In this document: positions 8,401 through 11,400 of the stretch, one piece after another
Layout of the letters: every line of letters begins with the position of its first letter
How positions within the stretch are numbered: the first letter of the stretch is position 1
Virus record (IMG/VR): IMGVR_UViG_2695420564_000003
Coordinates: 1 to 16,401 of that record
Direction: 5' to 3' (one strand)
Length of the DNA: 16,401 nucleotides
DNA from: a virus
Lineage: Duplodnaviria > Heunggongvirae > Uroviricota > Caudoviricetes
Position numbers: made by a program

Positions 8401-11400
8401 CGCACTCAGTGCCTGAACTAAGTTTTGCTGATGCGCCGTATCGTCGCTGTATTCCCGCATTAACAGAGACCGCAGCCCGACCGGGAGACTCCTCTTCGCG
8501 AGTGTGCGGGGATAATCAAAAACGATACACACCGGGGTTTACCGCGTTAACGGAGCGCGGCGTTGCCCCTCATAGTCGCCTGTCCGGTGCGATGGTGGAA
8601 GAAGCCGGACGATGTGTTACCTCGCAAGCCCTGTTATGTGTCTGATTTGTGATTTAAGTCGGATAATTGTCGTTGCCATCAAGCAGAGGATTGATGACCG
8701 ACAGGGTGGCATTGTTAGAATAAGACTTATTCTTATCTGTGCCGGGAATGAAAATGAAAAGAAATCTTCCGTTAATTATTTTGTTGTCTTCTCTGGTTAT
8801 GGGCTGTACGCAACATAAAACAGATATGCCCCGACAGTTGGTTAAGGCATTACCACAATATCCGGCCTATGCAGCGGCAAATTATATAAAGGGACGGGTT
8901 GATGTGAAGTTTGATATTGGTGCTGATGGTACTGTCACCCGAATTGAGTTTATCCGTTCAGAGCCGCACCATCTGTTTGATGAGCAGGTTGTAAAGGCGA
9001 TGGCAAAATGGCGATTTGAGAAGGATAGGCCGCGTAAAGGCGTGAAGAAAACGTTTATCTTTAGTCCTTCTGCACCCTGATTATTTCATCAGAAATTAAT
9101 TATCACTCTGTTGTTATTCTGTACATTCCGGCTGGGTAAGTCTTGTTCCGCCGGGTATGAAGATGAAATATTGTTGGAGGACAGTGGGTGCCTGCTCCTG
9201 TAACCGAACGTTCATTTCTCGTTATTTGTCATGCTGGCCGGACGCAGATGCGTTGCATCTGTTGCCAGCCTTCTCCTGCAGGCTTCAATAACCCACGCTG
9301 AAAAGTTACCGGAACCTTTATGTTCAAGGGCGATATTGATCTGTTCAATCATGTGATTGGGGAAACGGATATTGCGGGTTGTGGTTCTGCGGGTCCGGTT
9401 TTTCGATGACATATTTATTTCCTTTACTGATTGCCATATGACGGGGATTTTACATGGCTGAGCTTCGTACACTCCAGAGCAGAATCAAAACACTGAATAC
9501 CCGACGGGTGAATATTCTGAAGGGTGAACAGCGTCGTGTCAGTGGCAGTGCACGTGTTTCCCTCAAGCGTCATATCTGGCTCAGGGATGCCGGGCAGTGC
9601 TGTCTCTGTGGTCGTGTGGTTGACCTCTGTGACAGTGAACTCGATCACCGCATTGCACTTCAGTTCGGTGGTGGTAATGAGGAGACGAATCTCTGGACGC
9701 TCTGTACCGAATGCCATCGACAAAAGTCTGCTCGTGAAGCGGCGGGTGGTATGCCGGACCCGACGCTGCCGGAGGTGTCCGGAGGTAGTGGCAGAGCGGA
9801 CGACATCATCGGACTGTAACCCGAGCGGGGGGGTATCATCCGGCGTAAAAAACGATCGCTCCGGACACCGCGCCCCCTCTCACGCAGAGAAAAAATTCCC
9901 GTTTCAGGGCAGTTAACATGTTAACTGGCTGCCCGGGCATTTTTGCGGTTTTTATCTTTATTATTCAGTTTGTTGTGCGGAAAAAATGTTAACTGGCTTT
10001 TTCAGCAAATGTTAACCAGGCAGCAGTTAACATTTGCGGCATGAGACGCCGGGAAAAATGGGCTGAACCATACCCGGCTGAGTGCGTTCTGGACCCGGGA
10101 GGAGGCTGTGCTGACAACGCAAAAACGAAAATTTGCGCTGGCGCTCATGTCCGGGAAAAACAAAACAGCGTCAGCCATTGCCGCTGGTTATTCGGCGAAG
10201 ACCGCCAGGGTTAAAGGCTCGCAGCTGGCAAAAGATCCGGAGGTGCTTGCGTTTATAGCCCGTAAACAATGCGAGACGGTGGAGGTGGATGAGGTTCCTG
10301 TTTACCGGCAGAAAAAATCAGAGCAGGAGGATAAACCCCGTCGCCGTGAGGCGGCTGCAATACCACAGCCGGACGAAAACAATCCGGAGATGCCACCGTC
10401 CGCGGTGATGTCTCCTGGTATTGAATATATGGAGGATGGTCTTCCCGATCCGGTGAAAGCCATGGGGCGGATCCTGGTGGAAAACCTCTGCATTGATCCG
10501 AAACTGGCACTGGATGCGGCCTGGCGTCTGGCGCAGTTCACGCACCATAAAAAAGGGGATACCGGGAAAAAATCGGCAAAAGGTGATGCCGCGAAAAAAG
10601 CGGCTAACCGTTTTGCGGTGCCACCGCCACCCCGACTGGTGGTGAATAACGATAATGAGGAAAGCGGATGATACCTGTATGGAGCACAGCCTGCCCGGAC
10701 TGGGCAGAGCGCCTGAAAAAGGGGCTGTCGATTATTCCGGATCCGATTTATCCGGACGAGGCCGCACATGCCCTGGCGATTTTTAAACAACTGCGGATTG
10801 TGGATGCACCTGGTAGCCCGACGTTCGGGGAGTCCTGTGCACCGTGGGTGTTTGACCTGGTGGCGGCCCTGTTTGGCTCCTACGATGCGCAGACCGGTGT
10901 ACGCCATATCAAGGAAGTTTTTATCCTTATCCCCAAGAAAAACTCGAAGTCCACGCTGGCCGCGGGGATCATGATGACGGCGCTGTTACTGAACTGGCGG
11001 CAGGCGGCGGGTTACACGATTCTGGCCCCGACTGTGGAGGTGGCGGCCAACGCCTTCAACCCTGCCCGGGATATGGTACGACGTGACGATGATCTGGATG
11101 ACCTCTGCCAGGTACAGACCCATATCCGGACCATCACCCACAGGGTGACAGACACCACCCTGAAGGTGGTGGCAGCCGATCCGAATACGGTGTCTGGTAT
11201 CAAGTCCGTGGGTACGCTGATTGATGAGTTGTGGCTGTTTGGCAAGCAGTGCAAGGCGGAGGACATGTTACGTGAAGCCATAGGCGGCCTTGCCTCCCGC
11301 CCGGAAGGGTTTGTGGTGTATACGACCACCCAGTCGAATGAACCGCCCGCCGGGGTGTTCAGACAGAAACTGCAGTACGCCCGGGATGTGCGCGACGGCA

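Follow-up and report, generated by a model that had tools for sequence, protein, structure and literature searches.

Why should a lambdoid prophage carry, between its lysis and packaging genes, a gene for a small protein that resembles one end of TonB? This question is raised by a locus in a 16,401-nt stretch of viral DNA (positions 1–16,401 of the IMG/VR record IMGVR_UViG_2695420564_000003; this whole stretch is referred to as the window), in which an open reading frame (ORF) lies directly behind the spanin genes Rz/Rz1. The encoded protein is, almost certainly, a lipoprotein with a single TonB C-terminal domain (TonB_C). Whether it serves as an uncoupled decoy of TonB, the reading favoured here, is close to an even call.

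A preliminary description of this locus had likened the mature part of the protein to the TonB C-terminal domain (CTD), and profile searches and structure prediction bore this out. A Pfam search gave a match to PF03544 (E 5.5e-15; 56 bits against a cut-off of 24.6), TIGR01352 was matched with 56.5 bits (cut-off 27.1), and the Escherichia coli TonB CTD chains 1u07, 2gsk and 2grx were matched with E~1e-16 over residues 28–106. The AlphaFold2 (AF2) model, in which the predicted local distance difference test score (pLDDT) exceeds 90 across residues 26–103, has the TonB CTD fold: strand, helix, two strands, helix and an edge strand (residues 94–103), i.e. a three-stranded sheet with two helices. 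Its best match in the PDB, as revealed by Foldseek, was 2gsk_B, which is TonB in the BtuB complex (root-mean-square deviation, rmsd, 1.1 Å; template-modelling (TM) score 0.91), and with 1u07 and 2grx_C (TonB with FhuA) included the rmsd was 1.1 Å and the TM score, normalised to the target, 0.88–0.91; among the viral structures of BFVD there was no structural match to the model. Identity to residues 153–231 of E. coli TonB is 37–45%, depending on the aligner. The TonB residues that are kept are Y163, P164, F180, G186, F202, W213, Y215 (here F) and F230; the aromatic/glycine residue set of the TonB CTD was studied in PMC3005593.

The architecture of full-length TonB was not found. TonB equivalog models of the PRK10819 type reached 49–73 bits against cut-offs of 265–448, aligning over their last ~80 profile positions only, and the protein has neither an N-terminal membrane anchor nor a Pro-rich spacer. 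Its N-terminus is a predicted cleavable lipoprotein signal, and the linker from the predicted lipidated Cys to the domain comprises 7 residues (up to ~17 in relatives).

The part of the domain that matters most for partner binding appears to be intact. In TonB, strand 226–231 takes up the TonB box as an added parallel strand, with F230 lying against the conserved Val10 of the box (PMC6118199; PMC11658791); in this recognition, backbone pairing counts for more than the side chains do (PMC11658791). The TonB-box-pairing strand is predicted (AF2) at residues 94–103 of the lipoprotein, and F230 is near-invariant across the family of related proteins described below. Residues 235–239 of TonB form an extra C-terminal strand that occludes the binding edge in the nuclear magnetic resonance structure and must be exchanged (PMC6118199). 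The lipoprotein ends 5 residues past its F230 equivalent, so no occluding strand is possible and, judging from the model, the binding edge should be permanently open. The predicted anchor sits at the other end of the domain. Disulfide mapping by Cadieux and Kadner in 1999 is said to have located the Q160–Y163 region of the TonB CTD beside the TonB box, and a lipid anchor at this end would therefore be compatible with docking under a transporter.

The coding sequence is slightly shorter than originally proposed. Of the ~111-aa lipoprotein gene placed at 8748–9080, the plus-strand ORF, the stop at 9080 and the lipobox stand, but the start is moved to the ATG at 8754, which gives 108 aa. This choice was made because of the spacing to the Shine-Dalgarno-like GGGA, because the phage 21 allele (71% identical) has ATA where the window has its first ATG (8748), and because RefSeq calls a 108-aa product (WP_000828070.1, 'TonB family protein'); the earlier proposal of 8748 probably lies 6 nt too far upstream. 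Phage 21 has AGGA where the window has GGGA. The N-terminus, MKRNLPLIILLSSLVMG followed by C18, consists of a basic n-region, a hydrophobic core and the lipobox (MKRN-LPLIILLSS-LVMG-C18) and thus matches the sequence pattern of signal peptidase II lipoproteins, i.e. such an n-region and core with a lipobox [LVI][ASTVIM][GAS]C about 15–25 residues from the start. The Cys and the lipobox are invariant in all aligned family members, and position +2 is T, S or A, never D (Thr in the window protein). In E. coli, lipoproteins that do not have Asp at +2 are sorted to the outer membrane, and the Thr at +2 therefore predicts an outer-membrane location.

A family of ~107–133-aa proteins across Enterobacterales, built of a signal peptide, a lipobox and one TonB_C domain, emerged from a profile search against 1.8 billion representatives, from scanning genomes and from a search of viral contigs with divergent members. 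Over the domain, its members are 40–91% identical to one another, as against 36–44% to E. coli TonB, and they carry motifs that have no counterpart in TonB (YPxYAxAN, SEPxHLFD and AKWRFE). A survey of prophages, a check suggested when the locus was first described, found copies in E. coli, Salmonella enterica, the Klebsiella pneumoniae complex and Sodalis, all of them between the lysis cassette and the terminase. Other copies are chromosomal: in Raoultella and Klebsiella the gene lies between lacZ-lacI and a DUF1440 gene, in Serratia grimesii between ycgN and dsbB-nhaB, and around the homologue of Erwinia typographi no phage-like ORFs were seen on inspection. Further members were found in Gibbsiella, Erwinia, Pantoea and Rahnella. 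In phage records the gene is rare (15 of 50,697; phage 21 and Stx1a phages are among the carriers). E. coli has two alleles, A (window type), present in 417 of 5426 complete genomes (7.7%) and always chromosomal, and B (phage 21 type), present in 1225 of the 5426 (22.6%); these alleles are mostly 95–100% identical across well over a thousand genomes. Comparison of the window allele with that of phage 21 gave a ratio of nonsynonymous to synonymous substitution rates (dN/dS) of 0.13; within the Salmonella and Klebsiella groups the ratio is 0.17–0.23. Given these values and the hundreds of near-identical copies, the ORF is far beyond chance.

Earlier labels of the gene differ. Older annotations read 'partial tonB-like membrane protein encoded within prophage CP-933N' and, in the phage 21 record, 'TonB C-terminal domain protein'; the idea of a 'partial tonB' fragment was rejected in view of the dN/dS values (0.13–0.23) and of the closer relationship of the members to each other than to TonB. 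The family corresponds to PHROG phrog_1267 (E 1.9e-42, full length), which is labelled 'Rz-like spanin'. This label looks positional and wrong, as a separate Rz/Rz1 was present in every prophage checked, and a spanin identity was rejected on the grounds of the separate Rz/Rz1, the globular TonB_C fold and the chromosomal homologues. Two further observations concern the distribution of the family. A gene for a DUF1440 membrane protein (locus L005, 8738–9301) directly adjoins the Raoultella chromosomal homologue, and in Klebsiella phage ST13-OXA48phi12.4, a carrier of a TonB_C lipoprotein gene, a DUF1440 gene (L019, 1277–1903) shortly precedes the lysis cassette, which may be a trace of co-capture. 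A 418-bp contig from the assembly of the actinobacterium Modestobacter excelsi (L012), which encodes a product with 70% identity to the N-terminal two-thirds of the window protein, is most likely a contamination.

The gene seems to be equipped with a promoter of its own. The promoter originally proposed, TTGATG...TAGAAT, was only partly upheld: TAGAAT is retained as the -10 element, but its pairing with TTGATG leaves a 19-nt spacer, and a promoter scan preferred ATGACC-16-TAGAAT with an upstream TG. The element TGT(T/C)AGAAT is kept in the phage 21 allele while its flanks diverge, so that an island, ATTGT(T/C)AGAATAAGAC, is common to the two E. coli alleles although the rest of their upstream DNA has diverged. 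At the same place, TGTTAGTAT is found in the Salmonella prophage homologues and TGATAGTAT in Raoultella. The operator-like palindrome reported upstream of the gene was also found, as the perfect 7-1-7 sequence GAATAAGaCTTATTC; no other perfect 7-1-7 palindrome occurs in the window, and chance alone would give ~1. It overlaps the -10 element and the likely transcription start, and it lies where relatives have strong Fur boxes.

These boxes (scored as matches out of 19 to the consensus GATAATGATAATCATTATC) belong to a design that recurs across the family in the 90 nt before the start codon, where a -10 element (TAGTAT, TAGAAT or TATAAT, often with TG upstream) is directly followed by a Fur box. 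This arrangement was seen in a Salmonella prophage (locus L110; TGTTAGTAT-TGATAATCATTATCAA, with a perfect 7-1-7 core), on the Raoultella/Klebsiella chromosome (TGATAGTAT-TGA(G/T)AATTATTATCAA; 15–16 of 19), in Erwinia (TATAAT-GAGAATGATTTTCATTATA; 16 of 19), in a Sodalis prophage (GATAATGATTCTCATTAAC; 17 of 19), in Serratia (GATAATGATTTTCATTACC; 17 of 19) and, with various sequences, in Klebsiella-type phages (12–14 of 19). The Fur box of the Salmonella prophages is a perfect TGATAATcATTATCA. The boxes with 15–17 matches lie 25–65 nt before the start in the Sodalis, Serratia, Erwinia, Klebsiella and Raoultella homologues and are the top or joint-top consensus match in the respective 10–16 kb loci, where 0.00–0.01 would be expected from dinucleotide shuffles. 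From these comparisons of sequences we concluded that the ancestral promoter of the family would have been Fur-repressed, with the palindrome of the window as its putative degenerate descendant; Fur control of the window allele itself is uncertain.

Several additional sites were noted during this analysis. Three of the six best Fur-consensus matches in the whole window (13/19; at 8719, 9047 and 9092) lie in or around the TonB_C gene. The strongest sigma-70-like match in the region (TTCACA-16-TATAAT, 11/12) is antisense, inside the TonB_C ORF (8908–8881, minus strand), and could be an antisense promoter or, as the DNA is AT-rich, a coincidence. A perfect Fur-like palindrome, TGATAATTATTATCA, occurs ~40 nt upstream of the lambda-like cosN GGGGCGGCGACCTCGCGGG (L049, 5787–5801, and ~25 other allele-A loci); the loci in question are allele-A prophages with lambda-type packaging, and the palindrome is either linked to iron or an unrelated AT-rich packaging element. 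In the Sodalis (L014, 9665–9689) and Salmonella (L110, 6217–6231) prophages, a second strong Fur box lies downstream, before terS, and in Sodalis a second lipoprotein gene (phrog_3135) is placed between the two boxes; the second box suggests that there may be further iron-regulated cargo in this region.

The genomic position of the gene also deserves comment. It had been placed at the position that bor occupies in lambda, which is correct insofar as the gene directly follows Rz/Rz1 in the cargo region. However, bor is not replaced: in phage 21, PhiR47_2 and the uropathogenic E. coli (UPEC) strain 536 the genes run Rz/Rz1, bor/iss (opposite strand), a small ORF, the TonB_C gene and then cos or terminase, so both lipoprotein genes coexist. 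In UPEC 536 (L021, 2388–3488), the allele-B gene lies ~480 nt from iss, the serum-survival homologue of bor, within a DLP12-like lysis module that is adjoined by an ompC-like porin gene, so that envelope-modifying cargo is clustered here. The designation of the gene as a moron agrees with its foreign composition (43.7% G+C against 54–60% in the flanks), its presence or absence among phages and the extended -10 element, promoter-like by sequence, that is conserved between the alleles and common to relatives; it is weakened by the missing terminator mentioned below.

Taken together, these features would fit the following mechanism. Expressed from its own cargo promoter, presumably Fur-repressed in the ancestors and in most relatives of the family, and also by read-through of the late operon, the lipoprotein would sit at the inner face of the outer membrane, held there by its linker of 7 residues. 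There its exposed edge strand could pair with the TonB boxes of TonB-dependent outer-membrane transporters or, alternatively, with those of group B colicins emerging into the periplasm. Lacking an inner-membrane anchor, a Pro-rich spacer and contact with ExbB/ExbD, the domain would be unable to pull, and its competition with host TonB would damp or block the TonB-dependent entry of T1/phi80-type phages, group B colicins and siderophore-microcins, at the cost of some siderophore uptake. Binding to TonB boxes, inhibition and phenotype are predicted steps of the model, and such an uncoupled decoy has a probability that we place at, or just short of, one half. The idea is strengthened by the retention of the TonB-box-binding strand and F230 and by the loss of all energy-coupling parts. 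It is further strengthened by the inhibitory effect of periplasmic TonB fragments on TonB-dependent uptake: according to the summary of Howard 2001 given in PMC9841981, TonB-dependent import of iron into E. coli is inhibited when the periplasmic domain of TonB is overexpressed. TonB boxes, moreover, are present in all TonB-dependent colicins (PMC11658791). The Fur boxes of the relatives also lend support, since they tie the family to the physiology of iron and TonB-dependent receptors, and Fur control would fit a decoy because expression would peak when the receptors, i.e. the entry routes, are most abundant.

Several points weigh against the decoy. Arg166 of TonB, which is highly conserved and contacts Glu56 of FhuA (PMC6118199), is replaced by Tyr in the window protein and most of the family (by His, Val or Ala in a few members), and the Q160 position is variable (Leu in the window protein), so the affinity for transporters may differ from that of TonB. 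The Fur-like site of the window is weak (when the -100..-10 segment is shuffled, 2% of the shuffles attain its 13/19 matches), the phage 21 allele (B) has the right half of this site deleted, and a consensus match alone is no proof of Fur binding, because Fur-like AT-rich palindromes also occur near cos in related prophages. An intrinsic terminator downstream of the TonB_C gene was not found, either by a scan or by folding of 146 nt (z = 0.25); the Sodalis homologue is followed by a clear hairpin and a T-run. The chromosomal homologues with Fur boxes in Raoultella, Serratia and Erwinia are awkward for a pure inhibitor, since Fur-induced proteins of this kind would block iron uptake just when it is needed; a cellular role of the family, not necessarily phage exclusion, follows from their existence. 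Finally, the PADLOC defence models gave no match to the lipoprotein, and no functional study of it was found by full-text literature searches; PMC7724020, which deals with prophage genes and iron acquisition in avian pathogenic E. coli, concerns a tail-fibre ORF and an unrelated hypothetical protein and does not mention TonB.

The cost to iron uptake would be largely avoided by a lipoprotein that binds mainly foreign TonB boxes, namely those of group B colicins, pesticin-like toxins or phage proteins on their way into the cell, in preference to the boxes of host transporters. This variant of the decoy would provide tolerance at little expense and would resolve the problem posed by the chromosomal homologues. 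The presence of TonB boxes in all TonB-dependent colicins (PMC11658791) speaks for it, as does the loss of Arg166, a contact of the FhuA plug (PMC6118199), which fits weaker engagement of transporters; Fur control would also match expression to the peak of the receptors and toxin routes. Nevertheless, we consider it unlikely, for the mostly backbone-based pairing with TonB boxes (PMC11658791) makes selectivity for colicins over transporters not obvious. The same chromosomal homologues (in Raoultella, Klebsiella, Serratia and Erwinia), whose strong Fur boxes should lead to co-induction with iron-uptake genes, can be read in the opposite sense, with a lipoprotein that helps TonB. By pairing with the host TonB CTD or by pre-ordering TonB boxes, it would provide a docking or hand-over site at the outer membrane that aids the uptake of scarce iron, and the prophage copy would be a fitness or virulence factor like the neighbouring iss/bor. 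The proximity of the gene to iss in UPEC 536 and the crystallisation of isolated TonB CTD fragments as dimers are in agreement with such a role, but the dimeric crystal forms are reported to be absent in vivo (PMC3005593), a bound CTD without a force-transducing link could not open a transporter, and the sole experimental precedent for a free periplasmic TonB domain, as PMC9841981 relates it from Howard 2001, is inhibition. A helper function is distinctly unlikely.

Two other explanations leave TonB boxes aside. The TonB_C fold might act as a peptidoglycan- or protein-binding tether at the outer membrane that works with the spanins. The match to PHROG 1267 (E 1.9e-42; 'Rz-like spanin') would suit such an accessory to lysis or the envelope, and so would the location of the gene after Rz/Rz1 in all five prophage lineages (E. 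coli A and B, Salmonella, Klebsiella and Sodalis) and in a Klebsiella phage record, on the strand of the late operon and with no intervening terminator detected by the scan; TonB-like proteins with structural roles in the envelope also exist, an example being SjdR of Anabaena. The lineages tested, however, have a complete Rz/Rz1 upstream, lambda lyses without the gene, which is present in only 15 of 50,697 phage records, the relatives have a predicted promoter and Fur operator of their own as well as non-phage chromosomal loci, and a known cargo hotspot explains the position, all of which makes this role very improbable. That the gene is a functionless relic of a host tonB whose 3' end was captured, as the old label 'partial tonB-like membrane protein' and the 37–45% identity to E. 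coli TonB 153–231 might imply, is scarcely credible: the ORF is intact, the added signal peptide and lipobox are conserved, dN/dS is 0.13–0.23, the members resemble one another (40–91% over the domain) more than TonB (36–44%), and the alleles are mostly 95–100% identical across well over a thousand genomes.

If the uncoupled decoy exists, it has several implications. Phages, colicins, microcins and sideromycin or 'Trojan-horse' antibiotics have one of their major entry routes in the TonB-dependent receptors, and a blunted coupling step would explain differences between strains in their sensitivity to such agents. The decoy would represent a mechanism of lysogenic conversion distinct from the receptor blockers Cor and Llp. 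It would also provide a natural compact inhibitor of the interaction between TonB and the TonB box, already a drug target (PMC9841981). Through the Fur boxes of the relatives, the family becomes a candidate for a part of the iron-starvation response that has so far been overlooked in several genera. A wider view, which we put forward tentatively and consider more doubtful than the decoy itself, is that Fur-controlled, permanently open TonB mimics tethered to the outer membrane of Enterobacterales might be gatekeepers of TonB coupling at times when receptors are derepressed, and that temperate phages of E. coli, Salmonella, Klebsiella and Sodalis might have captured the gene along with its promoter as a broad, receptor-independent factor of exclusion or tolerance towards TonB-dependent phages, group B colicins and siderophore-microcins. 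Superinfection exclusion would then include a new mechanistic class, with up to ~30% of complete E. coli genomes as carriers. The TonB_C domain is textbook knowledge, and TonB-like labels for the gene are of long standing; new here are the definition of the family, the promoter and Fur-box design common to its phage and chromosomal members, the 'open-edge, uncoupled' anatomy and the prevalence figures.

The features of the locus are compiled in Table 1. The window is a composite or draft join: bases 1–7038 show a ~88% match to the E. coli purU-ychJ-rssA chromosomal region, bases 7046–7183 are a short fragment of an ABC-transporter ATPase gene, and bases 7175–16322, which begin in the middle of the antirepressor gene, show a ~97% match to E. 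coli lambdoid prophages (up to 99.8% to E. coli genome copies in the TonB_C gene region). N's occur at 426, 7039–7045 and 7184, and the junction is an assembly artefact and not an att site; the host is probably a non-coli Escherichia. The prophage part contains, in this order, the antirepressor fragment, Rz with embedded Rz1, a 332-nt gap, the TonB_C lipoprotein gene, a convergent YlcI/YnfO gene, and the HNH, terS, terL, capsid and portal genes (HNH, terS and terL start from 9454). As the Rz/Rz1 pair is complete, so is the lysis cassette without the TonB_C gene. The mini-ORF in the gap, MVEEAGRCVTSQALLCV, travels with the TonB_C gene, and its start region is kept in phage 21, where the annotated ORF has 46 aa.

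Table 1. Coordinates of features at the TonB_C lipoprotein locus (window positions).
Feature	Position	Strand	Basis or remark
Coding sequence, single-TonB_C-domain outer-membrane lipoprotein (predicted)	8754..9080	+	108 aa + stop
Signal peptide (residues 1-17), lipobox L14-V-M-G-C18	8754..8807	+	Sequence; Cys18 codon 8805-8807
TonB_C domain (residues 26-103)	8829..9062	+	AF2 model, Foldseek, alignment to E. coli TonB 153-231
Shine-Dalgarno-like GGGA	8744..8747	+	6 nt before ATG 8754; directly abuts 8748
Extended -10, TGtTAGAAT	8713..8721	+	Promoter scan, conservation in phage 21 allele
Weak -35-like ATGACC	8694-8699	+	Promoter scan (ATGACC-16-TAGAAT, span 8694-8721)
Palindrome GAATAAGaCTTATTC	8718-8732		Within Fur-box-like 19-mer 8719-8737 (13/19 matches)
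Conserved upstream block and mini-ORF (17 aa)	8592..8645	+	DNA alignment with phage 21, phage 21 annotation
Rz (i-spanin)	7954..8421	+	PHROG phrog_13, E 4.8e-74
Rz1 (o-spanin), embedded in Rz	8174-8359	+	phrog_3198, E 1.7e-31
YlcI/YnfO-family gene, convergent, downstream edge	9212..9415	-	

The lipoprotein can be compared with several known systems. Like the Rz1-type o-spanins, it is a small (predicted) outer-membrane lipoprotein whose gene stands at the end of the lysis cassette, but a separate spanin pair is present, and the gene is neither embedded in nor overlapping an i-spanin gene, encodes a globular TonB_C fold and has chromosomal homologues. Bor/Iss of lambda and of the prophages of extraintestinal pathogenic E. 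coli, which confer serum resistance, are likewise lipoprotein cargo of the region from Rz to cos or terminase and are taken to be expressed from the prophage; they are nevertheless unrelated proteins, encoded on the opposite strand, and co-occur with the TonB_C gene in phage 21, PhiR47_2 and 536. In its regulation the family is reminiscent of stx1, whose promoter, according to what Calderwood and Mekalanos reportedly found in 1987, is an instance of Fur-regulated prophage cargo. As there, a predicted Fur box lies at the cargo gene's own promoter, clearly so in the Salmonella, Sodalis and Klebsiella-type homologues, whereas that of the window allele is degenerate (13/19).

In comparison with the TonB CTD (1U07; 2GSK; 2GRX), the Pfam domain, fold, YP motif, aromatic cluster, G186 and edge strand are common to both. 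TonB, however, has a transmembrane anchor, a Pro-rich spacer and coupling to ExbB/ExbD, while the lipoprotein has none of these and is predicted to be lipid-anchored at the other membrane; it also differs in having Tyr for Arg166 and Leu for Q160, and in missing the last 4 residues, which in TonB are able to form the occluding strand. Comparable too are engineered periplasmic TonB fragments, for which Howard, Herrmann, Stratilo and Braun are said to have described in 2001 a lower sensitivity to colicin M, T1 and phi80. Such fragments (Howard 2001, J Bacteriol 183:5885, as cited in PMC9841981) likewise place a C-terminal part of TonB in the periplasm without energy coupling; they are soluble, longer, overexpressed laboratory constructs, whereas the window protein is natural, diverged, lipid-anchored and under its own regulation.

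Among phage proteins, there are parallels in effect with two other lipoproteins. Cor of phages phi80, N15, HK022 and mEp167 is a small outer-membrane lipoprotein that inactivates FhuA from the periplasmic side and so excludes phages. Llp of T5 is also a small outer-membrane lipoprotein, and according to bioRxiv 10.64898/2026.03.26.714494 it likewise inactivates FhuA from the periplasmic side. No sequence or fold relationship of either to the window lipoprotein was detected, and Pfam and PHROG gave no match to the Cor, Llp or Bor families. Cor and Llp act on one receptor, FhuA, whereas the target of a TonB mimic would be the coupling step common to all TonB-dependent routes into the cell, and all of these could be affected.

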